From an uncultured virus (IMG/VR IMGVR_UViG_3300030376_003496) (taxonomy: Duplodnaviria; Heunggongvirae; Uroviricota; Caudoviricetes), in the IMG/VR virus record IMGVR_UViG_3300030376_003496: 20,000 bases of DNA; one strand, written 5' to 3'. The translations under genes were made by a program, and so were the position numbers. The notes beneath the pieces were generated by a model that saw only the letters and a list, made by a program, of their open reading frames with translations, had not been told where the DNA came from and did not search any database. The first letter of the stretch is position 1, and every line of letters begins with the position of its first letter. Below are positions 339 through 18,377 of this stretch, in pieces.

Positions 339-351
339 TTCGGCCTTCAAC

Positions 352-412: not shown

Positions 413-652
413 ACCTGTCCTTGCGGGTAGTTCCACTATCACCGGACTCGCATAGAGGCATTCCCCGCGTGTAGTCCCCGTCAGAAGCCGTAGAATCTCG
501 ACTGCGGTCCTCGCTTGGACTCGGGGAGTTCCACCCCATTCACTTTTACTGTCCGTTAGGCGGCCTCTCCGGCCCTCTCACGGCATTTCCGGGTACACCT
601 GTTCGTATGGTGGCCCCTGCTTATTTCTCTCCGTTTCTCGAAAGGAAACAAT

Positions 653-967: not shown

Positions 968-1032
968 CCCGACACTGCTGGGCATCAGTATAAACTGCCC
1001 TTTCACTTTTCACAAAAAAGGAGACTTGACCG

Positions 1033-1281: not shown

Positions 1282-1291
1282 AAGGATTGAT

Positions 1292-1531: not shown

Positions 1532-1782
1532 CTAAAGAGTTCCGTATTTACGTGCATGACGATGCTTCACCAACACCTGAGGCTATCGCAATGTGGTTTT
1601 TTGACGCAAAAGATCCTGCTCTTATGTATGCTAGAGAGCTATGCGATAAGTTTCAAGAAAACAAGGATTGTCTTAGAAATCTTTCACGATACTCTGTAAC
1701 GGTGTATCAATTTTACGGTACTGACCTGAAGTTCAGGTCGGATGTTTTTGACTCAAAGAAGGAGTACCCATGCGTACGATGA
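1528..1782 (+). CDS. Hypothetical early protein (84 aa)
   Basis: GAGGA RBS; ATGA-coupled to the upstream gene. Confidence 0.7.
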   Translation: MTKEFRIYVHDDASPTPEAIAMWFFDAKDPALMYARELCDKFQENKDCLRNLSRYSVTVYQFYGTDLKFRSDVFDSKKEYPCVR

Positions 1783-2168
1783 GTTATCAATGGCTCCATG
1801 ACGGAGAGAATCTGACCTGTGTCAGCAATGACACTGGACCACAAGAAAAGTTTTTGTTCAAGACCGGGATGTTTGGTCGAGAATACTACTTCATTGAGCG
1901 TGACATTTCGCTCAAGGACTACGACGAGGATGCCGGGGCATACTGCTCGGAGGATATCGAGTGGTACGTCACTTGGCTGAGTGATGTGTCCAAGGCAGGC
2001 GTTGGACTCAAGAGGGAGGCAGTACACGCTCCCCTTGGTACTTACGCTGACATCAAAGAGGTATGCCTGTGGTGCCGAATTGGTTGTCCTGAAATCAAGA
2101 GAACAACAAGCAACGCCAAGTCGAAGATGGACTGGACGCTTGATATGCTCGAAGCTACTTCAAAATAA
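1770..2168 (+). CDS. Hypothetical early protein (about 130 aa)
   Basis: AAGGAG RBS with ATG at 1770 or 1779; followed by a terminator. Confidence 0.7.
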   Translation: MRTMSYQWLHDGENLTCVSNDTGPQEKFLFKTGMFGREYYFIERDISLKDYDEDAGAYCSEDIEWYVTWLSDVSKAGVGLKREAVHAPLGTYADIKEVCLWCRIGCPEIKRTTSNAKSKMDWTLDMLEATSK

Positions 2169-2175
2169 CTCTCAC

Positions 2176-2209
2176 GGGGGCGGTCATGTTGGCCGTCCCC
2201 TTCTTTTTT
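2176..2209 (+). terminator. Rho-independent terminator
   Basis: GGGGGCGGTCA-TGT-TGGCCGTCCCC, an 11-bp stem with 2 G-U pairs, followed by TTCTTTTTT. Confidence 0.8.
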
Positions 2210-2239
2210 CTATGCCACATTGGCAGAAAGTTTTATACT

Positions 2240-2518
2240 ATGTCTAACTATGACAAGACTATGCGTTTCTTTGCTACCGTCACCTTCTACCTCCCCCTTG
2301 GTGAGGGCAACAAGACTTGGGAACTCAAGGTCCACGCGAACACTCAAGGCGGCCTCATGGATGAGGTGCTTCGGGTCAAGAAGAACTACGAGGCCAAGCA
2401 CGGCAAGTCCACTTGCAAGACTTGGAAGTACTCTGGCCCCGATGGTTTCAACCGACTGATGGATCAGCGCAAGCGTGAGCAGAAGGCGTGGGCTGAGAAG
2501 CAGCAGGCCAGCGCGTGA
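2240..2518 (+). CDS. Hypothetical basic early protein (92 aa)
   Basis: ATG 2240 (MSNYDKT...); strong codon bias, with all 12 Lys codons AAG. Confidence 0.75.
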   Translation: MSNYDKTMRFFATVTFYLPLGEGNKTWELKVHANTQGGLMDEVLRVKKNYEAKHGKSTCKTWKYSGPDGFNRLMDQRKREQKAWAEKQQASA

Positions 2519-2548
2519 GCGGCTGCTCAACTCAAGAGGTATCCCGAG

Positions 2549-2578
2549 TCCCCTCTGAGGCATACGTCTCAGAGGGGG
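2549..2578 (+). other. Long intergenic hairpin, possible RNase III-type processing site
   Basis: TCCCCTCTGAGGC-ATAC-GTCTCAGAGGGGG, a 13-bp stem including G-U pairs, with no immediate U tract. Confidence 0.5.
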
Positions 2579-2705
2579 TCTCCGGGCCTCACACGGAACC
2601 TGTTGACTTGGGGGCTGCCCTCCTTGTTTTTATATTAGTAGTTTTATTATGCTACAGATTACTCAAGAGTAGCAAAGATTGATCCGATGATTATGTAGTG
2701 TCCAA

Positions 2706-2727
2706 AAAACCCACGTTATTGGTATAG
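2706..2727 (+). promoter_or_regulatory. Candidate phage promoter, copy 1
   Basis: AAAACCCACGTTATTGGTATAG is 17/22 identical to 11709-11730; both are intergenic, lie just before an RBS and end in ATAG. Confidence 0.4.
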
Positions 2728-2744
2728 CTACATAAGGAAATGCT

Positions 2745-3125
2745 ATGAGTAAACTGTATGACCGTGATGGATTCTGCGTATTCGGTACGCAACCTTCTGC
2801 TACGCAGCTTGTTGTGAACGACCGTGTGTATCTCATCGTTGACCGTAGGCGTAATCAAGACAACCTGAATGAAGCACAGCAATTGCATATGCAAGGGCTG
2901 CTGAATGTCCATGATCCTTATGTGGACTGGAGGGCTGTCACTGACAAGAAAGGAAAGTCTACCTATAAAGGAATGCTGAATGTATTCCCATCCATTGCAC
3001 AGCAGTGGAAGAATCAGATGAAAGGTAAGTACATCAAGCCCAAGACTTATATGACTGATAACCCTGATAAGATGGGTGAAGATAAGTATTGGGAAGTTCT
3101 TAAGTCCTATCTAACCAAGCACTAA
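2745..3125 (+). CDS. Hypothetical protein (126 aa)
   Basis: TAAGGA RBS; fits the operon tiling. Confidence 0.75.
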   Translation: MSKLYDRDGFCVFGTQPSATQLVVNDRVYLIVDRRRNQDNLNEAQQLHMQGLLNVHDPYVDWRAVTDKKGKSTYKGMLNVFPSIAQQWKNQMKGKYIKPKTYMTDNPDKMGEDKYWEVLKSYLTKH

Positions 3126-3134
3126 GGAGTGCAA

Positions 3135-3296
3135 ATGATTTACAAGATTGTTGAGTCTGGCAAGTGGTACAACGTTGTGGTTGCTTCCACTGATATGATT
3201 GAAGATGGTTTTGATAATCGTGAGGATGCCGAGCGGTACATGGCACACCTCGAAGCTTCAGATTCTGTTGGTATCCTCGAACAGGAGCGTAAGTAA
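3135..3296 (+). CDS. Small hypothetical protein (53 aa, not in the ORF track)
   Basis: TAAGGAG RBS; MIYKIVESGKWYNVVVAS...EQERK*; TAATG coupling to the next gene. Confidence 0.7.
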   Translation: MIYKIVESGKWYNVVVASTDMIEDGFDNREDAERYMAHLEASDSVGILEQERK

Positions 3297-3538
3297 TGCC
3301 TAAGAAACTAAAAACAGAAGACATCATCACTACCAAGGATCACCTCCATGACATTGACTACCTCGCAGGTAGGGCACTCATGATATTCAATGATGAGTAT
3401 GAAGGTGAGGCTGATTCATGGTTGGATGATATCAAGGACATTCAAAGAAAATGTTCTATCCTATTGACTAGAGATTTCATTAGGCGGGCTGATGCCCGTG
3501 CAGCAAGACACGCAAACCTTACAAGAAAGGAAGAGTAA
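3296..3538 (+). CDS. Hypothetical protein (80 aa)
   Basis: AGGAG RBS; TAATG coupling at both ends. Confidence 0.7.
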   Translation: MPKKLKTEDIITTKDHLHDIDYLAGRALMIFNDEYEGEADSWLDDIKDIQRKCSILLTRDFIRRADARAARHANLTRKEE

Positions 3539-3744
3539 TGTATATTGCAGAGATTATGTATCGTGGTGACCTTCATGAGATCATGCATCTCAACGACAGG
3601 GAGCCGTCCAATCTGGAAGTTATCAAACAAGAAATTGATTTGAACTATCCCGGCGAGGAGGATCATGTTCGTATTACCTTGATTAATAGGGATACAGATG
3701 AGCGTGAAGATATTACTGGAGAAGTAACATGTTCACAGAAATGA
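3538..3744 (+). CDS. Hypothetical acidic protein (68 aa)
   Basis: AAAGGA RBS; TAATG coupling. Confidence 0.7.
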   Translation: MYIAEIMYRGDLHEIMHLNDREPSNLEVIKQEIDLNYPGEEDHVRITLINRDTDEREDITGEVTCSQK

Positions 3745-4397
3745 ATGTTGAAATGGTAGATAGCATGGGAGGAGACTTGGATGTAGTTAACGCTGCCCGC
3801 GTCTCTTTCTCTAAAGAAAGTAATGAGCTTGGTAATAACGATATTAAACTTATTAACTATCTCGCCAAGCATAATCACTGGACTCCCTTTGCTCATTGCT
3901 TTGTAAAGTTTAGGGTTAAGGTTCCTATCTTTGTAGCTCGTCAATGGTTCAAACATACTGTTGGCTTTGCTTACAACGAAGTAAGCAGACGCTATGTATC
4001 AGGAAACCCTGAGTTGTTTGATGTTAACGTATGGAGAGGTAAACCTGAAGATAACATTAAGCAAGGATCTAGTAGCAAAGTAATATATGTTACTAGAGAA
4101 ACTACTGAGCTTATGGAAATAATGGTAGCTCACTACAATACTCTTATCAAACAAGGTATTGCACCGGAGATGGCACGTATGGTGTTGCCTCAGGCTACAA
4201 TGACTGAGTACATCGTAAGTGGTAGCCTTGCTGCATGGGCTAGGTTCTACAACCTCAGGGCAGACGATCACGCGCAGCATGAAATTCGCTGGTGTGCTGA
4301 ACAGATCGGTGAGAAGATGGTAAAGTATTACCCACATAGTTGGGCTGCTCTTTGTAACAACTGTAAGGAATGGAACTTTGGCGAAGAAGAACATTAA
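3729..4397 (+). CDS. thyX: Flavin-dependent thymidylate synthase (ThyX/Thy1)
   Basis: MGGDLDVVNAARVSF, HNHWTPF, PIFVARQWFKHTVGFAYNEVSRRY (phage-type variant of the ThyX motif), PEMARMVLPQ, HAQHEIR. Start could be 3741. Confidence 0.95.
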   Translation: MFTEMNVEMVDSMGGDLDVVNAARVSFSKESNELGNNDIKLINYLAKHNHWTPFAHCFVKFRVKVPIFVARQWFKHTVGFAYNEVSRRYVSGNPELFDVNVWRGKPEDNIKQGSSSKVIYVTRETTELMEIMVAHYNTLIKQGIAPEMARMVLPQATMTEYIVSGSLAAWARFYNLRADDHAQHEIRWCAEQIGEKMVKYYPHSWAALCNNCKEWNFGEEEH

Positions 4398-4488
4398 GTT
4401 TAAAGAATTTAGAGGTCGCACTGCTGGTAAGCCGAGGCGATCTAAAAAGAATAAGTACGGCCTACGAAAAAGTGGGAGAAAGAATTGA
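4378..4488 (+). CDS. Possible very basic micro-protein (36 aa)
   Basis: TAAGGA then TTG start; MAKKNIKFKEFRGRTAGKPRRSKKNKYGLRKSGRKN* fills the gap exactly to the next ATG. Confidence 0.5.
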   Translation: MAKKNIKFKEFRGRTAGKPRRSKKNKYGLRKSGRKN

Positions 4489-4491
4489 TGT

Positions 4492-4686
4492 ATGAGTCCG
4501 AAGGATCATAACGATTGGCGTAAGACTGATCGTGCTAAAGATAAGATTAAAGAACCAAAGAAAAATAAACACCAAAAGAAACACTGGACCGAATGGGCTG
4601 GTGATAACCTTGCTCATCCTGATGACTCAGTAGACATGACTCAACAAGAATGGGATAATTTTCTTGAAGGAAACTCAGATGAATGA
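4492..4686 (+). CDS. Small hypothetical protein (64 aa) with a basic N-half and acidic C-half
   Basis: Tiles between neighbouring genes; GGAG upstream. Confidence 0.65.
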   Translation: MSPKDHNDWRKTDRAKDKIKEPKKNKHQKKHWTEWAGDNLAHPDDSVDMTQQEWDNFLEGNSDE

Positions 4687-4798
4687 GATTGATCCAAAAG
4701 AACTTGAAAAGATTTTTGATGTCTTTCCTCAAGCACAGATTGAAAAAGACCTTCACAATCAGATTGTAATTTATACAGGAGTTTATGACAATGACTGA
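4679..4798 (+). CDS. Small hypothetical protein (39 aa, not in the ORF track)
   Basis: AAGGA RBS; MNEIDPKELEKIFDVFPQAQIEKDLHNQIVIYTGVYDND*; 8-nt overlaps at both ends. Confidence 0.6.
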   Translation: MNEIDPKELEKIFDVFPQAQIEKDLHNQIVIYTGVYDND

Positions 4799-5126
4799 AC
4801 GTGATTGTGTTCGTTACACAATAATGGTTCCTAATACTTTTGCAACAGATGAAGACATTCAGAATGAATTAAAAGAAGTTATTTTTGATGAATGCACACA
4901 AGCAGTAATCAGATCTTTTGCTTGCACTTGTATGGTTAGCGAGGGAAATGTTTTTGGTTTTAAAGAATGGAAAGTAACTATACCCCTGCATTCAGCCGAA
5001 GCTGTGTATCATCGTATTGCCCTTTGGGCAGAAGAATGGCTTCATCGTGAAGAAGCATCGGGAAGACTTGGTATAGATAGTATCATGTTAGAGAAAGAAT
5101 TTGTAAAGAAGGTATACTTGAGGTAA
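4791..5126 (+). CDS. Hypothetical protein (about 111 aa)
   Basis: AGGAG RBS at 4777; ATGACTGA overlap with the upstream ORF. Confidence 0.7.
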   Translation: MTERDCVRYTIMVPNTFATDEDIQNELKEVIFDECTQAVIRSFACTCMVSEGNVFGFKEWKVTIPLHSAEAVYHRIALWAEEWLHREEASGRLGIDSIMLEKEFVKKVYLR

Positions 5127-5133
5127 CGATATA

Positions 5134-5253
5134 ATGAACGGAGCAGATGGATTTTTATTGTATCAGTTAGGTTGTTTTGATTACGTTTTGTTTCTTGTTT
5201 TAATTGGTATTCTTGTGAGCTTTATTGGTAAAGCTCTCGATCTCTTTGACTAA
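5134..5253 (+). CDS. Small predicted membrane protein (39 aa, not in the ORF track)
   Basis: GAGGT RBS; hydrophobic stretch YVLFLVLIGILVSFIG. Confidence 0.6.
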   Translation: MNGADGFLLYQLGCFDYVLFLVLIGILVSFIGKALDLFD

Positions 5254-5269
5254 GAAAGGTCAATACACT

Positions 5270-6253
5270 ATGTCACACGAAATTACTACTACTGACAACG
5301 CAGTTTTCCACGGAACCAAGGCTTGGCACGGGCTGGGCTATGTTGTTCAGGATGAGATGGGTCCACTGAAGGCAGTTGAAACTGCTGGACTCGATTGGTA
5401 CGTCTACAAGACGGATGGTGTGTTCGGTTATACTAACGAAGGTGCTACTGTAATGGATTCCAAGCGGTGCATGACGTACCGTGAAGATACCAAGGAAGCC
5501 CTTGGCTACGTCTCCAGTGACTACAACGTCTTTCAGAATGTGGAGCTTGCGAATCTCGCACTCTCTGTGTCCGATGATGTTAAGGTTGAGTCTGCATTCT
5601 CAATGATGGGCGGCAAGCGTGTCGTGATCCTGCTCAAGGGATCAAGCATTGAGGTTGGCAAGGATGAGCGTGATGTCCTTGATACTTACTTCTGCCTGTG
5701 CAATGGGCACGACGGTAAGTTCTCTCTTCGTGGCTTTGGTACAACCATCCGTATTGTGTGCAACAACACACTTCAGATGGCACTGAGCAATGCCAAGGGA
5801 CAAACTTATGCAATTAGTCACAACGGTGACTTCCAGACTAAGCTGGAAGACATGCGTACTGCACTGGGTGAATACAAGAAGAACCGTGAATGGTTCCACA
5901 CTACTGTTAACTCCCTTGCTCAGAAGGACGTTGACAAGGCTCGACTTGATGAATTCTGGAAGCAGTCATTCGCAATGATTACTGATCCTAAGATTCTCAA
6001 GGACAAGACTGCTGGTATGCGTGAAGCAATCAAGTTCCAAGAAAACGTCAAGGTTACCTTTGAACAGGAACGTGACGCTGAAGGCATCCGACCCTCAATG
6101 TGGCTGGCTGCTAACGCAGTGACCAACTACATTCAGCACAGAACTACAACCCGAGGACGCAAGGCTTCCTTCGAAAATCGGGCTGGCGATATGCTGATGG
6201 GCAAGAAGGCAGATACTTCTAACAAGATCATGAAGGCCGCGTTGGCTTTCTAA
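5270..6253 (+). CDS. DUF932-family phage/plasmid protein
   Basis: MSHEI...AWHGLG...AGLDW, NGHDGKFSL, TTIRIVCNNTL, WLAANAVTNY; GAAAGG RBS before ATG 5270. Confidence 0.88.
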   Translation: MSHEITTTDNAVFHGTKAWHGLGYVVQDEMGPLKAVETAGLDWYVYKTDGVFGYTNEGATVMDSKRCMTYREDTKEALGYVSSDYNVFQNVELANLALSVSDDVKVESAFSMMGGKRVVILLKGSSIEVGKDERDVLDTYFCLCNGHDGKFSLRGFGTTIRIVCNNTLQMALSNAKGQTYAISHNGDFQTKLEDMRTALGEYKKNREWFHTTVNSLAQKDVDKARLDEFWKQSFAMITDPKILKDKTAGMREAIKFQENVKVTFEQERDAEGIRPSMWLAANAVTNYIQHRTTTRGRKASFENRAGDMLMGKKADTSNKIMKAALAF

Positions 6254-6360
6254 ATTTCACAGCATAGTGTACACAACCCTTACTTATGAAAGGGCCTATA
6301 GTTTCCTCAAAACTTAGTACACTATGTCCCCCCGCCCCTTGATTGTTTCAAGGGGCACTC

Positions 6361-6433
6361 GCCCTCGTAGCTCAGTTGGTAGAGCATTCGGCTTTTAACC
6401 GATCGGTCGCAGGTTCAAGTCCTGCCGAGGGCA
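6361..6433 (+). tRNA. tRNA-Lys (anticodon UUU)
   Basis: Acceptor GCCCTCG/CGAGGGC, D arm GCTC-AGTTGGTA-GAGC, anticodon loop CTTTTAA, T arm GCAGG-TTCAAGT-CCTGC; no encoded CCA. Confidence 0.95.
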
Positions 6434-6448
6434 TTAAGGAGATTTATT

Positions 6449-6544
6449 ATGATTGTTATTACTAACCCAGATTGTCCTGTTTGTAAAGGTACTGGAACAG
6501 ATACCCGTGGACCCATTGCCGAGGAGTGCCCTAAGTGTGAATAA
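6449..6544 (+). CDS. Zn-finger micro-protein (31 aa)
   Basis: TAAGGAG RBS; MIVITNPDCPVCKGTGTDTRGPIAEECPKCE*, containing CxxCxGxG and CxxC. Confidence 0.7.
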   Translation: MIVITNPDCPVCKGTGTDTRGPIAEECPKCE

Positions 6545-6548
6545 ATTA

Positions 6549-7090
6549 ATGGAAGAAATGTATACGTTTCATAATGAAATTGCTTTAAGAGAGAATGCTT
6601 CGGCTGCTTCGGTAGCCTCGCTGGCAGCAGTCGGGAAGGATTACTTTACGTCCATAGCGGGAGGACTTCTCACCCTCGGTGAAATCCACGCTCCACTATC
6701 ACAGACCCATAAGTTCATTACCCGCTGCTCCGAGCTTAACTACGAAAACGAAATCAAAACTCACTTGATTAATCACTACAAGATCCCCGGTTGGGGTTCA
6801 TCTTTTGTCAAAGGTAATCCTGACTCGGTGTTCTTTGCAGTTGATTGTATGCTTGAAGGAAGCAAAACACNNNNNNNNNNNNNNNNNNNNNNNNNNNNNN
6901 NNNNNNNNNNNNNNNNNNNNNNNNNNNNNNNNNNNNNNNNNNNNNNTACCCAAACGCTTCGTATTATACTGTAGCATGTTGCATTGAATCAGGAGTTCCT
7001 ATTGAAAAGGCAGCGTTCCATCTTGTTAATGCTAGACTCCCTGCTTGGACGGAGTTGTGGATTCTCACTAAACAGAAAAAACTTCGGTAG
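6549..7090 (+). CDS. Minimal citrate synthase / citryl-CoA lyase-fold protein with altered active site; spans an assembly gap
   Basis: Before the gap: ENASAASV..., SIAGGLLTLGEIHAP, KIPGWGSSFVKGNPD. After the gap, in the frame starting at 6947: YPNASYYTVACCIESGVP...NARLPAWTELW...* (TAG 7088-7090). These match the order of citrate synthase motifs NAS, GPLHGG, IPGFGH, YPNVDFY and ARxxGW. The apparent frame change lies within the N run. Confidence 0.75.
6871..6946. other. Assembly gap (76 N)
   Basis: Run of n characters. Confidence 1.
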
Positions 7091-7154
7091 CTCAGTTGGA
7101 TAGAGCAGTTGACTTCTAATCAACAGGTCGAAGGTTCGAGTCCTTCCCGAAGTG
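7081..7154 (+). tRNA. tRNA-Arg (anticodon UCU)
   Basis: Acceptor ACTTCGG/CCGAAGT, D loop AGTTGGATA, anticodon arm GTTGA-CTTCTAA-TCAAC, T arm GAAGG-TTCGAGT-CCTTC; no CCA. Confidence 0.95.
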
Positions 7155-7158
7155 TGAT

Positions 7159-7243
7159 GGCTCTGTGGCGGAATTGGCAGACGCAACGGACTTAAAATCC
7201 GTCGAGGGTAAACCTCATGGGGGTTCGAGTCCCCCCGGAGCTA
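7159..7243 (+). tRNA. tRNA-Leu (anticodon UAA)
   Basis: Acceptor GGCTCTG/CGGAGCT, anticodon arm ACGGA-CTTAAAA-TCCGT, long variable arm GAGG-GTAAA-CCTC, T arm GGGGG-TTCGAGT-CCCCC; no CCA. Confidence 0.95.
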
Positions 7244-7259
7244 TTAGAAAGGAGTATTT

Positions 7260-7454
7260 ATGTACGGTAAAGGTGATAAATACAGGGACGTTGATAAGAA
7301 AAAGTACGATGAACAGTATGAAAAGATTTTTGGAAAGAAAAAATTTAACATCATGAGTGACAAGGAGTCCAATGACAGTATGGGAAGCGTACACAAAAGA
7401 AGAAAAAACAAGGCTAACAAATCTTCAGTTAGCAAACGAAGACAAAGCCGCTAA
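7260..7454 (+). CDS. Small Lys-rich protein overlapping the RNAP start
   Basis: AAAGGAG RBS; N-terminal GKGDKYRDVDKKKYDEQYEKIFGKK resembles a small phage peptide type I recall but cannot verify here. Confidence 0.6.
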   Translation: MYGKGDKYRDVDKKKYDEQYEKIFGKKKFNIMSDKESNDSMGSVHKRRKNKANKSSVSKRRQSR

Positions 7455-9936
7455 ACAATCTATTGCAAAGTACCTTAACAATGTTAACATGTCCCCTAGT
7501 GCCTCTCCACGCGAGAAGGAATTTGTATTTGACTATACAGAATACCTTAGTGATTACATTAAGTGGACAGAAGAACAGTACGAAAAAGTAAAGAAGAAGC
7601 CTTACTGGCTTACTATTGCTCACTTGTTAGGTGCTGAACGTTGTGCTGCTATTGTTGTTAAAGCTTTGCTTGATAGCTGCTTATCGTCTCGTTTGATCCA
7701 AGCATCAGACGGTATTAAATACGATAACTATAACTTAGGAGACTTGAGATCCCAGACTAAACAGAATATACTTGGAGTTATATCAAGAGAACTGTGGCTT
7801 GCTATTGGCATACGCTTGGCTAAAGAAAACTACGGCGAAGAGTTTGCTCGACAGTCTCATTACTTCAAGAACTGGAATAAAAAGAGAATGAAAGCGTTTG
7901 CACGTAAGTGCCAAACGTTGCCTACATGGGATAACCAAAAGAGAAATGTGGTTGCCTTATCGTTTTATACTTTAATGGTAGGAAACAAAGAAAGCGTTAT
8001 GCCCTTTGTTGAGAATCCTATTACTATTGTAAAGAACGGACAGATTAAAAGACATACTATTATCTCACTACGAGAAGAGTTTACGAAAAACTTTGAGGCA
8101 TTTCATAATTTCTACCAATACTATAAGTGGTTGTATTACCCGATGGTATGCCCACCTATTCCTCACAACTATCCTAACAGGACAGCAGAGGACTGGGGTG
8201 GTGCTTTACATCTAGAGTACAGGAAGTCATCTGTTCATAACACAAGAGCAGGTAATTACTACAAGAACAATAGTGAGCATAGCCAGCAGTCAATCAATGC
8301 GCTTAATGCATTGCAAGGTACTGAATGGAGCATCAACAAAAGAGTTCTTGAGGTAATGACTAACTTGTACAAGTCTAATCGACAGGTGTGTAACCTGCCT
8401 CCTTATGAGCACGATGAGTTTGTGTTTAGCAAACCTTTCCCTGAAGGAGAAGAAAAAGAAGTAATAGCTAAATGGAAAAACGAACGGGCGGAGGCTTGGG
8501 GTCTATGGGAAAAGACTAAGCAAAAGAGAATGCAAATGGAAATGCGTTTGCTTATTGCTGATGATCTTAAAGACCTGACGTTTTGGCATGGTTATTCTTC
8601 TGACTTCAGAGGCAGGTGCTATACACAGTCATCGTTTCTATCTCCTCAGAGTGGTGACTTTGACTGCGGTATAATTCAATTTGCTGAAGGGGCTAAACTA
8701 GAGGCAAATGAAGTTAAAGAAGAATGTGATTACTTCTGGTTAAAAGTTCACTTAGCTAATAGATGGGACTTTGATAAAGCTTCTTTTGAAGAACGTGCTC
8801 AATGGGTTGATGATAACATTGCTATGCTTCGTCAAGTGTACGAAGACCCTGAGGGTACTGTAGACCTTTGGAAAGATGACAAAGCTAAAAAGAATGTGTC
8901 ATTCAGACGGCTGGCTGACACTATTGATTTCTTTGTTGCTTTAGAAACAGGTTACTCGTATGTTCCTAAGAATCTGGATGGAACATGCAACGGTATTCAA
9001 CACTGGGTTGGTACAACAAAGGCTGAGAACTTAGCTGAACTTGTCAATGTTATTAAAACTCTTGAACCGGGTGACATGTATAAGTTTATTGCTCATAACG
9101 CTACTGCAAAAATGCAAGCAGAGCGTGATGCCAATCAATACTTTGATATGTTTTTAACCCATTGGGAGCATACAGAAAAAGACAAGAAGATGCCAAGAGG
9201 GCTACCTAAAAGAACTGTAATGTGTGATCCATACGGGGTTACATTCTACAGTGCAAGGCAGTACATTCGATCTGAAGGACATCTTGACTGGTGCAGACCA
9301 TTGCTCGAAGAGCGTGGCCTAAGCTGGCAGGGAGCCATCATGGAATGTACGTCAGTAATTTGGGAAGCACTGCAAGAAGCATTGATCTTACCTAATGAAG
9401 CTAAAGAATACATTAAAGATTGTGTTGAAGTTTGTTACAACAGTGATGACAGAAAGAAGAAGCCACTCCAATGGACAACTCCTTCTGGATTTAAGGTTAG
9501 GCAATATTATACAGAACATATAGAATATATTACTGATATTGCTTTATTGCTAAAGAATGATGTACGCATCAGATCTACAGCAGAAATGTGGCAGTTTACT
9601 GATAACATGGACGTTAGGAAAATGGCAACTGCTATTCCTCCTAATTGGGTTCATTCAATTGATGCTGCACATATGGTATTTGTGGTACTCGCTTTGCTGG
9701 CTATGGGATGCAGAAACTTCTGTATGATCCATGACAGCTTTGGCGTACCCGTCACTTACCTAAAGTATTTACCACGTATATCAAGGGAAACATTTTATGA
9801 AATTCACAAAGAAAGTCAACTCGAATTATTTAAACAAGACCTCGAAAACTTTTCCGGTCACGAACTCCCAGACATTCCAGAACAAGGTAGCCTCGTTCCA
9901 GAAGAAATTCTCGAATCTGAATATCTCTTCTGCTGA
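7372..9936 (+). CDS. T7-like single-subunit DNA-directed RNA polymerase (854 aa)
   Basis: PMVCPP, DFRGRCY, motif A LDGTCNGIQH, motif B RGLPKRTVMCDPYG, WTTPSGFKVRQYY, PPNWVHSIDAAH, motif C IHDSFG, C-terminal SEYLFC; AAGGAG RBS before ATG 7372. Confidence 0.97.
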   Translation: MTVWEAYTKEEKTRLTNLQLANEDKAAKQSIAKYLNNVNMSPSASPREKEFVFDYTEYLSDYIKWTEEQYEKVKKKPYWLTIAHLLGAERCAAIVVKALLDSCLSSRLIQASDGIKYDNYNLGDLRSQTKQNILGVISRELWLAIGIRLAKENYGEEFARQSHYFKNWNKKRMKAFARKCQTLPTWDNQKRNVVALSFYTLMVGNKESVMPFVENPITIVKNGQIKRHTIISLREEFTKNFEAFHNFYQYYKWLYYPMVCPPIPHNYPNRTAEDWGGALHLEYRKSSVHNTRAGNYYKNNSEHSQQSINALNALQGTEWSINKRVLEVMTNLYKSNRQVCNLPPYEHDEFVFSKPFPEGEEKEVIAKWKNERAEAWGLWEKTKQKRMQMEMRLLIADDLKDLTFWHGYSSDFRGRCYTQSSFLSPQSGDFDCGIIQFAEGAKLEANEVKEECDYFWLKVHLANRWDFDKASFEERAQWVDDNIAMLRQVYEDPEGTVDLWKDDKAKKNVSFRRLADTIDFFVALETGYSYVPKNLDGTCNGIQHWVGTTKAENLAELVNVIKTLEPGDMYKFIAHNATAKMQAERDANQYFDMFLTHWEHTEKDKKMPRGLPKRTVMCDPYGVTFYSARQYIRSEGHLDWCRPLLEERGLSWQGAIMECTSVIWEALQEALILPNEAKEYIKDCVEVCYNSDDRKKKPLQWTTPSGFKVRQYYTEHIEYITDIALLLKNDVRIRSTAEMWQFTDNMDVRKMATAIPPNWVHSIDAAHMVFVVLALLAMGCRNFCMIHDSFGVPVTYLKYLPRISRETFYEIHKESQLELFKQDLENFSGHELPDIPEQGSLVPEEILESEYLFC

Positions 9937-9970
9937 ATGGTTGAAATCTATCCTTAACGAAGGTAGAATC

Positions 9971-10273
9971 ATGAGAGTAAGATGGAAGGACGCTCAATCA
10001 ACCGGCGGACCCGGATGGGAAGATGCTGAAGATATTAAAGAAGCCGCTTCTGCTGAGATTTGTATTGTAAACACTATTGGTTATGTTATTAATTTTACTG
10101 AAGACAGAATTGTTCTGACGGATACTATTCAACATGACGGGCAAGCGGGAGGCGCAGTGCATCTCATCCCTATAGAAATGGTACAAGAAATTCACTACCT
10201 CAAGGAGGATAGTTTTGATGTTCAAACACACAACAACGATCAACTCGGAACACACAATGGAGGAACTGCTTGA
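9971..10273 (+). CDS. Hypothetical phage protein (WxDA...GW...TxG...IP type)
   Basis: VRWKDA, GWED, VNTIGY, LIPIEMV pattern. The start is uncertain because the frame is open upstream into the RNAP gene. Confidence 0.7.
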   Translation: MRVRWKDAQSTGGPGWEDAEDIKEAASAEICIVNTIGYVINFTEDRIVLTDTIQHDGQAGGAVHLIPIEMVQEIHYLKEDSFDVQTHNNDQLGTHNGGTA

Positions 10274-10493
10274 TACTATTGAGTTTAATATCCTAGAAGG
10301 AGAAAACGCAACGTATCAAATTATTCTTCCCTCTATTAAATGGGTGAACATTATTCTTGATAACGTGCAGACTATTGGAGATAAGCATCTTTCTAAAGAA
10401 GACGATCTTTCAGAAGATCTTGTAAACATTGAATTTGTAGTAGATAGTACTGACGATAACTTTCCAGAAGAGGATTACTTTAATGCAGAATAA
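10218..10493 (+). CDS. Acidic hypothetical protein (91 aa)
   Basis: Strong AAGGAGG RBS; overlaps the start of the sigma gene. Confidence 0.75.
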   Translation: MFKHTTTINSEHTMEELLDTIEFNILEGENATYQIILPSIKWVNIILDNVQTIGDKHLSKEDDLSEDLVNIEFVVDSTDDNFPEEDYFNAE

Positions 10494-11058
10494 GTTTAGA
10501 AACTACGAAACAGACCCTATTGATATGAACAACAATGATGATCTTATTGAGTTGATTAATAACATTATTGGTACAAAGATTAATCAGGGTTACTTTAGGC
10601 GTTGGTCTAAAGATGCTTTGTTAAGTGAAGGTTGGATTCAAATTCAGTCTCTCATTGAAACTTGGGACAAAAGTAAAGGGGTGGCCTTTAATAAGTATTG
10701 CTATTTGTACCTTCCTTCTAGAATTTCTGACGGAATGCAGGGCTTTGAAGAAGGTATGGCTAAGAACAAGCCCGGTTCTGAATTTCGTTATGCTCACCGA
10801 GCTTGGCAGTTTGACGAATATGAAGATGCTCACACTAACCCAGCAAACGGTGCTTCATGTGAAGACACTTTTGCACAACACAAAGACACAATAGTAGACA
10901 GGGTTTTGAATCACCCTAGTCTTACTGAGGCTGAACGTACTGTTGTTGATATGATTGGCAGAGGGACAACAATGAAAGCCATTGGCGCGGCTATGGGCGT
11001 AACTGAGTCCCGTATTTCGCAGCGATGCAAACTGATTAGGAGCAAGATTAATGAGTAG
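10483..11058 (+). CDS. Sigma-70 family sigma factor-like protein (FliA/WhiG-like regions 2 and 4)
   Basis: Region 2-like DALLSEGWIQIQSLIETWDKSKGVAFNKY; region 4 HTH LTEAERTVV...TMKAIGAAMGVTESRISQ. Confidence 0.82.
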   Translation: MQNKFRNYETDPIDMNNNDDLIELINNIIGTKINQGYFRRWSKDALLSEGWIQIQSLIETWDKSKGVAFNKYCYLYLPSRISDGMQGFEEGMAKNKPGSEFRYAHRAWQFDEYEDAHTNPANGASCEDTFAQHKDTIVDRVLNHPSLTEAERTVVDMIGRGTTMKAIGAAMGVTESRISQRCKLIRSKINE

Positions 11059-11710
11059 AGTATTAGTAATTGGGGATCTACATGCCCCCGCTGTTAGAGA
11101 AGACTACTTTGATTTCGTTAGAAGTATACGAAGAAAGTATAGAACTGATCAGACAGTATTTATTGGTGACGTTATAGATCACCATGTTATTTCGTACCAC
11201 AAAGCAAACCCTGAATCGCCCGACGCAATCAGGGAATACAACCTTGCTTTTGAAACTGTTAAGCGTTGGTACAAGGCGTACCCAAACGCTACTGTAACTA
11301 TCGGTAATCACGATAGTCGAGTGCATAGACTTGCAGCAGATGCTGGCATTCCTTCTATGTACCTCAAAGAATACAATGAACTTTATAAAACAAAGAATTG
11401 GGAATGGAAACATAATGTTGAGTTGGATGGGGTTTATTACTATCATGGCACCGGTGCTGCTTCTGCTTACCCGGCATTTAATGCAGCTAGAACACGCAAT
11501 CAGTCAGTCGTTATGGGTCACCATCATACAAAGGCAGCTATTAATTGGATGTGTGGGTCTAACAATCATCGTATTTTTGGTATGTCTGTTGGGTGTGGAG
11601 TAGACAATGACCACCTTGCCATGCTGTACGCAGAACATTATCTTATTAAACCTATTCACGCATGTGGGGTAGTGGTCAATGGGCACCCCTATCTCGAACT
11701 CATGCCATAA
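11051..11710 (+). CDS. Calcineurin-like metallophosphoesterase
   Basis: GDLH, GDVID, GNHD, HG and GHHH motifs in canonical order. Confidence 0.92.
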   Translation: MSRVLVIGDLHAPAVREDYFDFVRSIRRKYRTDQTVFIGDVIDHHVISYHKANPESPDAIREYNLAFETVKRWYKAYPNATVTIGNHDSRVHRLAADAGIPSMYLKEYNELYKTKNWEWKHNVELDGVYYYHGTGAASAYPAFNAARTRNQSVVMGHHHTKAAINWMCGSNNHRIFGMSVGCGVDNDHLAMLYAEHYLIKPIHACGVVVNGHPYLELMP

Positions 11711-11730
11711 AACCCATGCTATTACAATAG
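11709..11730 (+). promoter_or_regulatory. Candidate phage promoter, copy 2
   Basis: AAAACCCATGCTATTACAATAG; lies ahead of the SSB/replication cluster and is similar to 2706-2727. Confidence 0.4.
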
Positions 11731-11757
11731 GCACCTACTGTGCCGGAAAGGATAACT

Positions 11758-11961
11758 ATGAGTGAAGAAACTGTAGTTGAAGAAACCATTAAAGAAGAGG
11801 TGTCTGGACAGCCGATTGGTGTACAGGCACAAGTAGTTCTTTCCTACTTGGAAGAACTCTATGGGGCAATTACTATGCTTAGTAGTAACCTCAGTAACCA
11901 GATTAAGTCCCTCTCAGATGTCATTGATAACGCCAACAAGGAGAACGAAACTAATGACTGA
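11758..11961 (+). CDS. Small acidic, probably helical hypothetical protein (67 aa)
   Basis: GAAAGGA RBS; ATGACTGA overlap with the SSB gene. Confidence 0.7.
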   Translation: MSEETVVEETIKEEVSGQPIGVQAQVVLSYLEELYGAITMLSSNLSNQIKSLSDVIDNANKENETND

Positions 11962-12481
11962 TCGACCCACTGCTACCATTAAGACCGGCGACCTGACTGT
12001 GAAGTACTCTCATGTCTCCGTACCTGACACCAAGTTCAATGCTGAAGGTGAGTATAAGATCACCGTGATGCACGACGAGGAACTCGAAGCCAAGCTCCAG
12101 AAGCTTGCTGACGAGTGGAAGGTTGACCAGCCTTTTGTCAAGACCGTCAAGGATGGCTCCAAGGTTATTACCTTCAAGTCAAAGTATGCACCTAAGATGT
12201 ATACTGCTGATGACGTTGAAGCAAGAGCCAAGGGGTTCTGCTGGTCCGGTGATACCGTTAACATCAACTCTGTTTGCTACCCCGTTGAGGTCATGGGTAA
12301 GACCTACCTCTCAATGAAGTTTAACGCTGTACTCCTCAAGCATGTGAATGAGTCAGAACAGCGTGAAGCTAGTAACCCGTTCGGAACTGGTAGCGCAGTG
12401 TCGGCCAGTGATGTGAGTGAGACTGATGGTGAACAGCCTGATGCTCCTACTGTCATCACTGATGAAATCCCATTCGATTAA
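11954..12481 (+). CDS. Single-stranded DNA-binding protein (T7 gp2.5-like)
   Basis: PDTKFNAEGEYKITV and ITFKSKYAP motifs, acidic tail ending DEIPFD, position before resolvase and primase; AAGGAG RBS. Confidence 0.85.
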   Translation: MTDRPTATIKTGDLTVKYSHVSVPDTKFNAEGEYKITVMHDEELEAKLQKLADEWKVDQPFVKTVKDGSKVITFKSKYAPKMYTADDVEARAKGFCWSGDTVNINSVCYPVEVMGKTYLSMKFNAVLLKHVNESEQREASNPFGTGSAVSASDVSETDGEQPDAPTVITDEIPFD

Positions 12482-12490
12482 GGAGACCGT

Positions 12491-12880
12491 ATGAATGCTG
12501 GTGAATGGACTTTTAATATAAATCCAGTTGCAGCCAGCCGTCCTCGGGTATCCAAACATGGACATGCGTACTTTACTGGTGCGTATAAACAATTTCGTAA
12601 AGATATGATCGATGTGGCCGAGGCGGTCCTTGGAGAATTTGAACCTCTCCAAGGGCCGTTATCGGTTGATCTGGAGCTATATGTCTGCAAACCTAAGACT
12701 ACTAAGTTGTCATCACCAAGGGGTGACATTGATAACTTTACTAAAGCGGTCTTTGATTCTCTCAATGGTGTACTGTGGGAGGATGACCGGCAAATAGAAA
12801 AGCTTTATGTTGTGAAATGTTGGACCGAGAGTCCTGAACAAGACGGTTGGTTTAGAATTGGAGTAAACCAAATTGATTAA
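12491..12880 (+). CDS. rusA: RusA-family Holliday junction resolvase
   Basis: PVAASRPRV N-terminus and GDIDNFTKAVFDSLNGVLWEDDRQI catalytic motif. Confidence 0.92.
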   Translation: MNAGEWTFNINPVAASRPRVSKHGHAYFTGAYKQFRKDMIDVAEAVLGEFEPLQGPLSVDLELYVCKPKTTKLSSPRGDIDNFTKAVFDSLNGVLWEDDRQIEKLYVVKCWTESPEQDGWFRIGVNQID

Positions 12881-14786: not shown

Positions 14787-16499
14787 ATGGAAATCATATG
14801 GGACATCGAAGCCAACGGCCTCGCGTATCCGTCAATCGACAAAAAAGGAAACTCCATACCCCGTGCAGAAAGGGTTTGGTGCATCGTGGCAAGAGAAGCA
14901 GGCTCTGAGAGAGTCTACACGTACGGCCCCAACGACATCGAGCGGGGCATTGACTTTCTTAGCCGCGCTACTCTTTGGATTGGTCATAATCTTATCGGGT
15001 ACGACATCCCCGTTCTTTCTCGACTTGGCCTTGTTCGTAGCTGCCCTGTACTTGATACTCTCATTGTTTCTAGATTGATGTATCCTGATAAGCAGGATGT
15101 CAAGTTCCCTCTGCACGACAAGAAAGGGCGGCATAGCCACTCATTGGAAGCATGGGGTCGGAAACTTGAGGATAACAAACAGGATTACGACGGCGGCTGG
15201 GAACATTACTCTGAAGAAATGCTGGAGTACTGTATCCAAGACGTTGCAGTAAATGAAAAGATCTATAACTATCAAAAAGAATGGATCGAGGAGAACCGTA
15301 AGGTAGTGCAGTTCGAGCACCTTGTTGGGCATGTATGTGCCGACATGACAAAGAACGGTTTTCGGTTTGACTGTGAAGCAGCTAGTGAATTGCAACGAGA
15401 ATTGCTTGGCACTAAGGCTGACATCGAAGATAACCTTCAACAAACATTTCCTACTCTTGTAGAGGAACGCTGGTCAGAAAAGACTGGTAAACGATTGAAG
15501 GATAAAGTCACGGTGTTTAACCCCGCTTCAACCAAACAGATTGCCGAACGGTTTAAAGTAAAGTATAGTTGGAAAGCCCCTGTCAGTGAGAAGGGGAATC
15601 CAAACTGCGACACCAAGGTATTGAAGTCATTGAAGTTTCCAGAAGCCCGCTCTATCCTTGAGTACCGTGATGCCCAGAAGTTGCTGGGTATGGTGGACGA
15701 TTGGATGTTGCGGGCTTGTGTGTCTGGTGCTGGTACAATTCATGGGCAGTTTAACCACCAAGGTGCAGCGACTGGTCGTGCTACGCACTCACAGCCAAAC
15801 ATCGCACAAGTCGATAAGAACCCTAAATCACGCAGGCTTTGGAAGCCTCATGACGGTCATGTCCAAGTTGGCTCTGACCTGAGTGGCCTTGAGCTACGTA
15901 TGTTGGCTCATCAGATGGCCGAGTTTGATGGCGGTGCTTATGCTAAAGAAATTCTTGAGGGTGATATTCATACCACCAACATGAATGCCGCAGGCTTGAG
16001 TGATAGGGACCAAGCAAAAACATTTATTTACGGTTTCCTATATGGTGCCGGATCAGAAAAGATTGGTCAGATTGTTGGGGGCAATGCCCGTGATGGTCAG
16101 CAACTTAAAGATAAATTCCTAAGGCGATTGCCTGCACTTAAGAAAGTTATTCAGAATGTCCAATTCCAATCGGCTAAGTATGGTAGTGTTGTTCTCTTGG
16201 ATGGTCGCCGTGTTCCTGTACGGAGTGATCACGCAGCTCTTAACACTTTACTACAGGGAAATGGTGCAGTTGTTTCTAAACTCTGGATCGTACTGGCCCA
16301 TCGGTCCCTTTCCTCCAAGGGGGTAAAGATGATGGGTTGGATTCATGACGAGATCCAAACGTCTTGTCCTCCAAACATTGCCGAAGAAACGGGCAAAGAA
16401 CTGGTGCGATGCGCCCAAGAAACAGGAAGAAAGCTTGGCATTAGAATGCCGGTAGACGCAGAGTATGTGATTGGAGAATCATGGGCAGATACCCACTAG
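14787..16499 (+). CDS. Family A DNA polymerase (T7 gp5-like) with 3'-5' exonuclease
   Basis: Exo motifs DIEANG, GHNLIGYD, YCIQDV; polymerase motifs ATGRATHSQPN, DLSGLELR, RDQAKTFIYGFLYG, IHDE. Confidence 0.97.
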   Translation: MEIIWDIEANGLAYPSIDKKGNSIPRAERVWCIVAREAGSERVYTYGPNDIERGIDFLSRATLWIGHNLIGYDIPVLSRLGLVRSCPVLDTLIVSRLMYPDKQDVKFPLHDKKGRHSHSLEAWGRKLEDNKQDYDGGWEHYSEEMLEYCIQDVAVNEKIYNYQKEWIEENRKVVQFEHLVGHVCADMTKNGFRFDCEAASELQRELLGTKADIEDNLQQTFPTLVEERWSEKTGKRLKDKVTVFNPASTKQIAERFKVKYSWKAPVSEKGNPNCDTKVLKSLKFPEARSILEYRDAQKLLGMVDDWMLRACVSGAGTIHGQFNHQGAATGRATHSQPNIAQVDKNPKSRRLWKPHDGHVQVGSDLSGLELRMLAHQMAEFDGGAYAKEILEGDIHTTNMNAAGLSDRDQAKTFIYGFLYGAGSEKIGQIVGGNARDGQQLKDKFLRRLPALKKVIQNVQFQSAKYGSVVLLDGRRVPVRSDHAALNTLLQGNGAVVSKLWIVLAHRSLSSKGVKMMGWIHDEIQTSCPPNIAEETGKELVRCAQETGRKLGIRMPVDAEYVIGESWADTH

Positions 16500-17014
16500 T
16501 TGTATATTTATATAGTAATTTAGATCACCCAAACAAGTGGCAAAATATCATACATCGGCTTTTAATTGGCCCTGCAAAATGGACTCATATAGGTATTTCT
16601 GTGGGCCAAGCGCATTTCTTTTTTACGCATACTCAGGGATCGGTAGTTACTACTAATAAAGCCGTATTTAAATTGATGAAGCCTCATACGTTATTGTTTC
16701 TTCCTAGTGTTGAAATAACACTAGAAAAACTAAAAGAAATAATGCCTAAATATTCTTCTTATTCTAAATGGGATATGTTTTATTACGGATTGTCTAGATT
16801 TATTCCCCTTAAATATGTAGGATACACACGACCTAAAACATGTGGAGAGGGTACGTGTAAAGTGTTAAATGGGTTAGGTATTCCAGTACCGCCCTTTGAT
16901 GGCTATAACATAGAAAACATTAGGAGATGGTTACATGAAAATAATTTCGTTCTCTGGGAGAGCAGGTATCGGGAAAACAACAATAGTAAGAGAACTGATG
17001 GGTCATCTGTATGA
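16481..17014 (+). CDS. Putative permuted papain-like (NlpC/P60, YaeF/YiiX-type) protein
   Basis: WTHIGI (His) precedes YSKWD and TCGEGTCKVL (Cys), the permuted order; start uncertain; AT-rich. Confidence 0.5.
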   Translation: MGRYPLVVYLYSNLDHPNKWQNIIHRLLIGPAKWTHIGISVGQAHFFFTHTQGSVVTTNKAVFKLMKPHTLLFLPSVEITLEKLKEIMPKYSSYSKWDMFYYGLSRFIPLKYVGYTRPKTCGEGTCKVLNGLGIPVPPFDGYNIENIRRWLHENNFVLWESRYRENNNSKRTDGSSV

Positions 17015-17672: not shown

Positions 17673-18342
17673 TGGAGATATCATTGCGTATAAATTAGCG
17701 TGTAAAGTAGATGTGTACGGCGATGAGTATCTTCTCCAAAATATTAGAGAGTATGTAGCTAGTTGGACTCCTTATGAATGCGATGAAGTTGTTCTGGCTT
17801 TTAGTTGTAGCCGAGAAGATAACTACCGTAGAAAATATTGGCCTGATTATAAAGCCCACCGAAGTAGTGTCTCTAAGCCCGACTCAATGATCGATGTAAT
17901 TAACTCAATAAAGGCGTTGTATAAGATTGCTTATACTCCTCACCTAGAGGCAGACGATCTGATGGGCAGGGAAGCCTCTGGCGAGAGAGCTATCGCTGTG
18001 ACCATTGACAAGGATCTAAGATGTACTCCGGGCTGGCACTGGAACCCTGACAAGGAATGGGAGCCTCGATACCTTACGGTAGAGCAGGCTGATCGTTTCT
18101 TTTACAAACAATGGCTTATGGGGGATAGTACAGATAAGATACCGGGCATCCCTAAGGTAGGCCCAGTTAAAGCAGATAGACTACTAGAACAAAATAGTCC
18201 CGCTAATTGGGAAGCTATTGTTATGGTAGAGTATGAAAAAAGGGGCTTGACAGAGGAATATGCCCTAAGTCAAGCAACTTCAGTTAGAATTTTAAGAGAT
18301 AAAGAAGAACCATGTTTATGGAAAACAAGCTGGATGGGTTAA
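17644..18342 (+). CDS. 5'-3' exonuclease (T7 gp6-like)
   Basis: ILDGDIIAY, NYRR...YKAHR, EADD, DKDL, GDSTDKIPGIPKVGPVKA. Confidence 0.93.
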   Translation: MKMPTIAILDGDIIAYKLACKVDVYGDEYLLQNIREYVASWTPYECDEVVLAFSCSREDNYRRKYWPDYKAHRSSVSKPDSMIDVINSIKALYKIAYTPHLEADDLMGREASGERAIAVTIDKDLRCTPGWHWNPDKEWEPRYLTVEQADRFFYKQWLMGDSTDKIPGIPKVGPVKADRLLEQNSPANWEAIVMVEYEKRGLTEEYALSQATSVRILRDKEEPCLWKTSWMG

Positions 18343-18377
18343 AAAACCCAGATATTAGCTACGAAGGGATACGAACA

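Follow-up and report, generated by a model that had tools for sequence, protein, structure and literature searches.

A minimal sigma factor gene beside a T7-type RNA polymerase gene in one lineage of uncultured T7-like phages

Introduction

In phage T7 and other Autographiviridae, the host RNA polymerase (RNAP) transcribes the early genes, the phage enzyme gp1 transcribes the middle and late genes, and gp2 shuts the host enzyme off. What would a phage of this kind do with a sigma factor? The question is raised by a 20,000-nucleotide stretch of an uncultured Caudoviricetes virus (IMG/VR record IMGVR_UViG_3300030376_003496; below, the window), which comes from the early-to-middle section of a T7-like phage genome and carries, shortly after a T7-type single-subunit RNAP gene, a gene for a sigma-70-like protein of 191 amino acids (aa). 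A sequence-only reading of the window had noticed this pair and proposed that the protein may redirect host core RNAP, occupy it as a decoy sigma, or titrate a host anti-sigma such as FlgM.

In the portions of the cited papers on which we draw, here and throughout, host sigmas, phage sigmas and sigma-independent phage polymerases are presented as alternative strategies (PMC9429907, PMC4496689). About 13% of 4,350 VOG phage genomes carry a sigma factor, and the available text of that survey makes no mention of Autographiviridae (PMC9429907). Sigmas are missing from those jumbo phage groups that have an RNAP of their own (PMC7824862). A literature search over titles and abstract openings found no description of a T7-type RNAP together with a phage sigma, with the limit that the VOG sigma table of PMC9429907 could list T7-like cases.

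We conclude that the pairing is real and rare, and that it is a variant of known phage-sigma strategies. Newly established are a lineage-specific insertion with sigma-less sister lineages, two classes of sequence motifs, allele exchange at the sigma gene, and an overlap of the RNAP gene with the small gene that follows it (orfA). As to function, we lean on balance towards a working minimal sigma that acts on host core RNAP as an accessory layer over the T7-type programme.

Results

The T7-type RNA polymerase

The polymerase (Table 1) matches Pfam RNA_pol at 218 bits (cutoff 22) and PHROG 414 at E 1e-142, and it aligns continuously with T7 RNAP (E 5e-45) through catalytic motif A (D541), the motif B residues R613, K618 and Y626, the specificity loop, motif C (HDSF, D793) and the C-terminal YLFC. 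The protein motifs of T7-type single-subunit RNAPs (motifs A, B and C, specificity loop, C-terminal aromatic foot) are thus present, and Pfam, PHROG and the continuous alignment confirm the intact enzyme described in the sequence-only reading. Identity to the RNAPs of cultured phages is only about 25%; the nearest cultured matches of other proteins are found for Pol A (about 40%, pelagiphages and roseophages) and the portal (about 34%). Three relatives of the window, G002, G003 and G004, are near-complete genomes of 68-73 kb, and G002 carries a T7-like virion module.

Domain structure and class of the sigma protein

The 191-aa protein matches Pfam Sigma70_r4 at 25.9 bits (cutoff 24.1), and TIGR02937 covers its residues 44-190 (E 3e-7). 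Among 27 members of its family, 24 match Sigma70_r4 at E ≤0.05, 25 match TIGR02937 at E ≤0.001, 6 match Sigma70_r2 and none matches Sigma70_r3. An AlphaFold2 (AF2) model built from 33 sequences (mean pLDDT 81.9) has three helices at residues 18-88 that form a sigma2-type bundle, with pLDDT >87 over residues 11-90, and a helix-turn-helix (HTH) bundle at residues 137-190. The low-confidence linker between them, of about 45 residues, leaves no room for sigma3. In a Foldseek search of PDB, among the matches listed, 50 of 50 are sigma factors or sigma chains, none reaching E 0.001, and many of the BFVD matches are annotated phage sigmas. VIA-align superposes residues 20-91 on sigma domain 2 (3ugo, Z 7.6, rmsd 2.1 over 67 residues) and residues 135-191 on sigma4 domains (8jzt, Z 8.5), where Z values of 7.6-8.5 are middling for helical bundles.

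By its predicted fold the protein is a sigma-70-family member, ECF-like in size and not a member of the FliA family. It agrees with the ECF group (group 4) in having sigma2 and sigma4 only and a length near 200 aa. For two other ECF traits, an adjacent cognate anti-sigma and an autoregulated bipartite promoter, the picture is less clear: the neighbouring orfA and orfB have no family match and occur in sigma-less sisters, and no bipartite motif stood clearly above shuffled sequences. The highest scores come from FliA/WhiG (sigma28) and sigma70-ECF models, all under their cutoffs and with the FliA/WhiG model TIGR02479 in first place; a phmmer alignment to WhiG also takes in region 2 (residues 43-84), and the protein shares with FliA/WhiG a similar region 4.2 helix (ESRISQ) and a Ser in region 2.2. 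In contrast to FliA/WhiG, it has no sigma3, its region 2.4 is altered (rewritten as LPxRISD relative to WhiG) and its TIGR02479 score of 35.7 bits is far under the cutoff of 189.6. Region numbers are taken from the WhiG alignment and from what we take to be the standard anatomy of sigma70.

The architecture proposed by the sequence-only reading, sigma2 plus sigma4 two small open reading frames (ORFs) past the RNAP gene, with too little sequence between them for a full region 3, is thus upheld by the AF2 fold, VIA-align and Sigma70_r4, and the region 2 fold on which it hinged is confidently predicted. Its profile check came out mixed, with Sigma70_r4 above its cutoff, Sigma70_r2 unmatched in the query and FliA/WhiG far under cutoff; the FliA label stands for a resemblance only.

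Two other roles can be weighed at this point. The sigma4 HTH might serve a stand-alone repressor or activator that has lost core binding: only Sigma70_r4 passes its cutoff, GerE/NarL HTH models match the protein too, and region 2.4 is atypical. However, the sigma2 bundle is predicted with confidence and region 2 holds most of the invariant positions, and we regard this role as improbable. Alternatively, the protein might titrate a host anti-sigma (FlgM or RsiG) and so free a host FliA/WhiG sigma, as the FliA/WhiG models and structures among its best matches could suggest. The low TIGR02479 score and the missing sigma3 speak against such titration, as does an identity of only about 30% between the two sub-clades of the sigma family, since mimicry of one host sigma predicts closer likeness. 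The FlgM idea of the sequence-only reading is therefore weak, and anti-sigma titration appears very improbable.

Taxonomic distribution of the sigma gene

The gene order RNAP-orfA-orfB-sigma-phosphoesterase-orfC-SSB (SSB, single-stranded DNA-binding protein) is shared, without exception, by the 10 IMG/VR loci whose RNAP is close (69-99% identity). Ten metagenome loci, several of which duplicate the viral loci, were also collected; two end inside the RNAP gene, and the remaining 8 of 8 have the RNAP-to-SSB order including sigma. G002, G003 and G004 contain one sigma4 match each.

Outside this clade the picture is different. A search with a diverse RNAP alignment yielded the best 80 of 596 loci, and in the comparison set of 78 loci outside the clade plus 5 GenBank loci the sigma family profile found nothing at E <0.05. 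Nine loci belong to sister lineages (RNAP identity 31-38%, primase 59-68%). The order RNAP, phosphoesterase, RusA, primase is retained in them, and in most of them small ORFs follow the RNAP gene; sigma is lacking at the RNAP locus in 9 of 9 cases, in records that are 10-46% complete. In a FastTree tree of 33 sequences the RNAPs that come with a sigma group together in a single clade (support 1.0), whereas support for the exact sister is 0.24. Sigma70_r4 was also searched over 50 whole records, 49 of the 83 outside-clade loci and G002 as a control; none of the 49 other T7-RNAP records matched, including 16 records at least 90% complete and the 5 from GenBank, and only the G002 control did. The pairing is therefore not a common one among the T7-RNAP records searched.

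Since the sigma gene is present in all clade loci, absent at the locus in the sisters and undetected in the 49 other records, these sequences are most simply explained by one insertion event in a single lineage. A tblastn search of cultured phages with the sigma protein and with P0017 gave no match, a FliA-like query matched 59 records, none of them named as T7-like, and no IMG/VR locus was found for the distant relatives P0014 and P0018.

The same distribution bears on the idea that the sigma assists one of the phage's own single-subunit polymerases as a cofactor of specificity or initiation, for which gene linkage is the only argument. The T7-type RNAP has its own specificity loop, the sister RNAPs occur without a sigma, and we know of no sigma-70 fold that acts on T7-type enzymes. 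Such a cofactor role seems barely credible.

Divergence and conservation of the sigma gene

The sigma gene diverges faster than its neighbours, with 90, 83 and 55% identity where the RNAPs are 99, 98 and 96% identical. Compared with RNAP and phosphoesterase, its dS is raised about 2-3-fold or is saturated (0.48 vs 0.15; 0.72 vs 0.27-0.33; saturated vs 0.43), and dN/dS is 0.10 and 0.12 in the two unsaturated pairs. These values are signs of purifying selection combined with a swapping of old alleles by recombination. Positive selection was considered and rejected, because dN/dS is about 0.1 where it can be measured and the excess divergence is accompanied by raised dS. Exchange is not unique to sigma, as the primase of locus L006 shows the same raised dS.

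A second fast-changing gene, orfD (16481-17014), follows Pol A. Its identities are 92%, 46% and 32-37%, with dN/dS 0.27-0.57, and it has no PHROG match. In locus L007 it shows exchange like that of sigma, and it is probably another exchanged, host-facing gene, judging by these comparisons.

Conservation was scored over 19 sigma sequences, some of them near-duplicates (P0014 and P0018, though in the 27-member set, were left out). W41 and S48 in region 2.2 and L77, R80, I81 and D83 in region 2.4 are kept in all 19, and E49 in 17. Identity in region 2.4 is 0.83 and 0.75 within the sub-clades and 0.54 between them; the corresponding values for region 4.2 are 0.68 and 0.63 within and 0.40 between. 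Between sub-clades region 2.2 reaches 0.31 and the linker 0.14, so that regions 2.4 and 4.2 are the best conserved.

This pattern weakens the decoy idea of the sequence-only reading. In the form weighed here, the sigma would bind host core RNAP and block host sigmas in place of T7 gp2, without productive promoter opening. The gene lies in the RNAP-to-SSB interval next to small ORFs without a gp2-like PHROG match, the search for a sigma promoter class came up empty, a proline sits in region 2.4, and the raised dS would fit a host-facing protein. However, a pure decoy need not keep its DNA-reading regions, which are the parts most conserved between sub-clades, and the sister lineages have no sigma at the locus. 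The decoy stays among the rivals as an unlikely one.

Candidate promoter motifs

Motif B has the consensus AAAACCCA-N2-3-TATW. Its three matches in the window compare with 0.01 expected, and G002-G004 each carry it at four orthologous intergenic sites. Weaker copies within genes precede internal virion genes in all three genomes and lie inside the portal gene in both genomes that reach it. At least one match is present in 18 of 18 sigma-clade loci examined and in 0 of 9 sigma-less sister loci. Once ribosome-binding site (RBS) words and A- or T-rich runs were set aside, motif B was all that came out of a search for k-mers shared between intergenic regions. It forms one uninterrupted 17-mer, in which an A-tract and a C-rich core lead to a TATW box followed by a purine, and its register presumably matches that of the T3 promoter. 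Annotated LUZ100 promoters look like it, and its layout is the -17 to +6 arrangement of T7-type promoters (PMC4496689). Motif B thus appears to be a candidate promoter class over middle and late genes, and its probable reader, as far as sequence comparison goes, is the gp1-type RNAP.

Motif A, (TT)CCACTATCA, is confined to the plus strand. Counts of its core CCACTATCA in the early regions are 4 for G002, 4 for G003 and 5 for G004, where at most 0.02 are expected, and the copies often lie 8-11 nt upstream of an RBS. No conserved hairpin was found at motif A. It could be read by host holoenzyme, by a virion RNAP or by the phage sigma, or be an RNA element. A genome search for motif A plus RBS, made with the host in mind, gave 91 scattered stretches, about chance level by estimate. 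The sigma profile matched none of 15 virus records with motif A plus RBS, mostly fragments, and one of the 15 has a weak RNA_pol match inside a 4728-aa frame. The CTATGTTTGGTCAA repeats of G004 were discarded as a promoter class, since they are found within long ORFs and do not recur in G002 or G003.

Either motif might instead be the sigma's own single-element promoter, with sigma driving middle and late or delayed-early genes as part of the core programme. A phage sigma can work with one element: phiEco32 gp36 promoters have a single main one (PMC8948821). For motif B, this option is favoured by its presence in sigma-clade loci and absence from sister loci, by copies that read TG-n-TATAAC, and by a canonical sigma70-like site at the motif B position in sisters L172 and L173, which have the same RNAP in the tree; for motif A, by its terminal TATCAY hexamer. 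On the other hand, motif B has the layout of T7-type promoters and resembles those of LUZ100, and the RNAP specificity loop is near-invariant across both sub-clades, whereas the sigmas are only about 30% identical. With sister RNAPs at 31-38% identity, the loss of motif B in sisters is expected under either reader. Motif A, for its part, is found with the earliest genes, ahead of the sigma gene. We consider it quite unlikely that the sigma reads either motif.

A third element, a sigma70-like site, lies just past the RNAP stop codon (Table 1). It scores at least 9/12 in 9 of 11 clade loci, is absent in L033, and reaches 10/12 in one of 7 sisters checked (L161), against a background of 2 in 199 windows at 10/12. 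The site falls in the orfA coding sequence, and coding constraint is an alternative cause of its conservation. On this pattern it is a candidate host-holoenzyme promoter for orfB, sigma and phosphoesterase. For positions 7300-12500 no RNA record was listed, a blank that carries no weight as to expression.

A giant virion protein of the relatives

In all three relatives a cysteine-free protein of 4661-4735 aa (0 Cys in 3 of 3 copies) is encoded among virion genes, outside the part covered by the window. Every copy contains DADxSG and K-x3-MT-x2-YG segments that resemble catalytic motifs A and B, preceded by an HD that resembles motif C; the G002 copy is encoded at L037 606-14765. This HD-first order is consistent with a permuted RNAP core. 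PHROG 414 (T7 RNAP) matches all three copies weakly (E 0.008-0.1). When a low-confidence model (pLDDT 48) is compared with 48,161 chains, mitochondrial RNAP (Z 8.4) and T7 RNAP (Z 8.1) come first, ahead of a next-best 5.8. Foldseek found no match at E 0.001, no PDB sequence matched, and the profile-profile probability is 11%. The predicted module is likely RNAP-derived.

Neighbouring genes and the early region

The two small ORFs that the sequence-only reading placed between RNAP and sigma exist, with the correction that orfA begins inside the RNAP gene. In all 11 clade loci its reading frame extends upstream without a stop to the same Met (probability by chance 0.05-0.17 at each locus, the loci not being independent), and the overlap is also present in sister loci L160 and L171. 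A start at 9797, which gives a dual-coding stretch at 9797-9936 with the RNAP 3' end, is most likely; a +1 frameshift fusion to RNAP is less likely. The Atlas matches of orfA are unnamed viral clusters. For orfB no match was found in Pfam, PHROG, NCBIfam or Atlas, and its profile matches sister locus L159 at E 0.01. Neither ORF matches a gp2-like family in Pfam or PHROG searches; this is the interval in which, as the sequence-only reading pointed out, T7 encodes gp2. The phosphoesterase, followed as a clue to the host, has no relative in GTDB genomes.

Table 1. Positions of the genes and candidate promoter elements in the window
Feature	Positions	Strand	Remarks
Motif A (TTCCACTATCA)	431..441	+	early-region element, candidate early promoter
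Motif B	2704..2720	+	ahead of gene block leading to RNAP gene
T7-type single-subunit RNA polymerase	7357 (GTG) or 7372 (ATG)..9936	+	859/854 aa; every catalytic motif present
orfA, phage family of unknown function	9797..10273	+	158 aa; starts inside RNAP gene, +1 frame, 140-nt overlap
Sigma70-like site TTGAAA-17-TAGAAT	9941..9969	+	just after RNAP stop; 10/12 consensus matches
orfB, acidic protein of unknown function	10215..10493	+	92 aa; similar small ORFs at same place in sigma-less sisters
Sigma-70-family protein	10483..11058	+	191 aa; sigma2 ~10534-10746, linker, sigma4 ~10891-11052, no sigma3
Metallophosphoesterase	11051..11710	+	overlaps sigma stop codon; Pfam Metallophos 40 bits, PHROG 221
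Motif B (AAAACCCA-N3-TATW)	11707..11723	+	candidate T7-type RNAP promoter ahead of orfC-SSB
gp2.5-like SSB	11954..12481	+	PHROG 112 E 5e-11; closes RNAP-to-SSB interval
Motif B variant, 2-nt spacer	18341..18357	+	ahead of ribonucleotide reductase gene

Just upstream of the RNAP gene lie tRNA-Lys(TTT) (6361-6433), tRNA-Arg(TCT) (7081-7154) and tRNA-Leu(TAA) (7158-7244). All three anticodons pair with A-ending codons, and the G+C content of the window drops from 55% in the first kb to about 40%. Between the tRNAs is a small citrate-synthase-like ORF (6453-6974; Pfam E 0.01, under cutoff), broken by an N run in the window assembly and whole in loci L001 and L005. A RusA-type resolvase (12491-12880) replaces T7 endonuclease I. 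ThyX (3729-4397) lies upstream of the RNAP gene, and several sister loci have ThyX after RusA.

There are also signs of RNA structure. In the early region of G002 (locus L015) two Pistol ribozymes (3317-3395 and 4522-4572; 65 and 49 bits) score above the Rfam gathering threshold; none was found in positions 1-7400 of the window, which at about 975-1000 shares the AGTATAAAC hairpin word with the first of them. Many early RBS elements (GAAAGGA) of G002-G004 and of the window (about 632-650) are apparently set in short hairpins whose arms covary by eye, a possible translational control of early genes. A structured-looking intergenic region ahead of the capsid gene (L016, about 9430-9580) is kept in three genomes and has no Rfam match at gathering score.

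Discussion

A possible mode of action

Our preference for a working sigma that acts on host core RNAP is based on what was observed: fold, synteny, lineage restriction, purifying selection and the two sequence motifs. From these we infer core binding, a promoter function for the motifs, the pairing of enzymes with motifs, and the sigma's targets. One lineage of ~70-kb T7-like phages would have inserted a minimal sigma (sigma2 plus sigma4) between orfB and the phosphoesterase gene. Host holoenzyme would probably transcribe it from the sigma70-like site after the RNAP gene, with a contribution from read-through. The protein would then load on host core RNAP in competition with host sigmas and send it to a small set of promoters with a new -10 specificity, while the middle and late genes appear to fall to the T7-type RNAP by way of motif B, and the early ones, by way of motif A, to a virion-borne RNAP-like module or to host holoenzyme. 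That small phage sigmas do run host core RNAP is known for phiEco32 gp36 and 7-11 gp47 (PMC8948821, PMC12276001).

Several results weigh against this preference. Sigma70_r2 was not matched by the 191-aa query itself in the Pfam search, and its 30.1 bits fall short of the TIGR02937 cutoff of 42.9, a shortfall that reflects divergence, the fold being in agreement with the sigma-70 family. In region 2.4, YLPS stands where S. venezuelae WhiG has RIRG, which puts a proline in the helix. Regions 2.2 and 4.2 are conserved to the same degree (0.70 and 0.68) within the nearest sub-clade, and allele L007/P0008 has an altered 4.2 recognition helix, with motifs A and B unchanged in the same genome. A search for bipartite motifs in 26-29 upstream regions per genome found none clearly above shuffles in three genomes, and the only two enriched motifs, A and B, have other natural readers. 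The bipartite negative is weak, because the same approach failed for phage 7-11: motif finders did not predict its sigma promoters, which are real, and the promoters of phiEco32 gp36 do with one main element (PMC8948821). Redirection of host core RNAP is thus the best of the three ideas in the sequence-only reading, although the search of the phage genomes found no sigma-dependent promoter class. The targets might tentatively be sought in a few unrecognised phage promoters; that they are host genes is somewhat more doubtful.

Comparison with known systems

The closest parallels are phiEco32 gp36 and 7-11 gp47, likewise small two-domain phage sigmas among replication genes and expected on host core (PMC8948821, PMC12276001). 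Unlike the present lineage, those phages rely on host RNAP, with sigma as the main middle/late switch, whereas here an intact T7-type RNAP comes with candidate promoters and the sigma looks accessory. The Bacillus phages also have accessory sigmas that possibly act on host genes (PMC9429907). In contrast to theirs, which closely resemble host sporulation sigmas, the present sigma is highly diverged, has no sigma3 and belongs to a phage with its own RNAP.

Like T7, the lineage has the gene order RNAP-SSB-resolvase-primase/helicase-Pol A-exonuclease, a T7-like virion module and a 17-bp promoter-like motif ahead of SSB. Unlike T7, it has ~70-kb genomes, a sigma gene in the RNAP-SSB interval, no gp2-like match and a 4.7-kaa cysteine-free protein with an RNAP-like module. 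Coliphage N4, whose programme runs through vRNAP, RNAPII and host sigma70 RNAP with N4SSB, may have in common with the lineage an injected single-subunit RNAP, a second phage RNAP and the use of host core RNAP (PMC4496689). The second RNAP is, however, one T7-type chain here and a heterodimer in N4, host RNAP would be steered by a phage sigma rather than SSB, the late genes carry a T7-type motif, and motif A has no conserved hairpin.

It can be speculated, as a possibility of which we are far from convinced, that one 70-kb genome supplies three specificities: a possibly permuted, injected RNAP with motif A, a gp1-type RNAP with motif B, and a newly acquired, allele-swapped sigma on host core that switches on a host or hidden phage regulon, where T7 uses gp2 shut-off.

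Significance

The lineage appears to combine strategies otherwise presented as alternatives, and its close sister lineages without the sigma provide a natural with/without comparison. The gp1-type RNAP and motif B would make up a T7-type polymerase-promoter pair that is both new and very divergent. Work in vitro on motifs A and B as candidate promoters, and on the three enzymes, does not depend on knowing the host. If the sigma is active, this is a T7-like phage that keeps host RNAP and re-aims it rather than silencing it.

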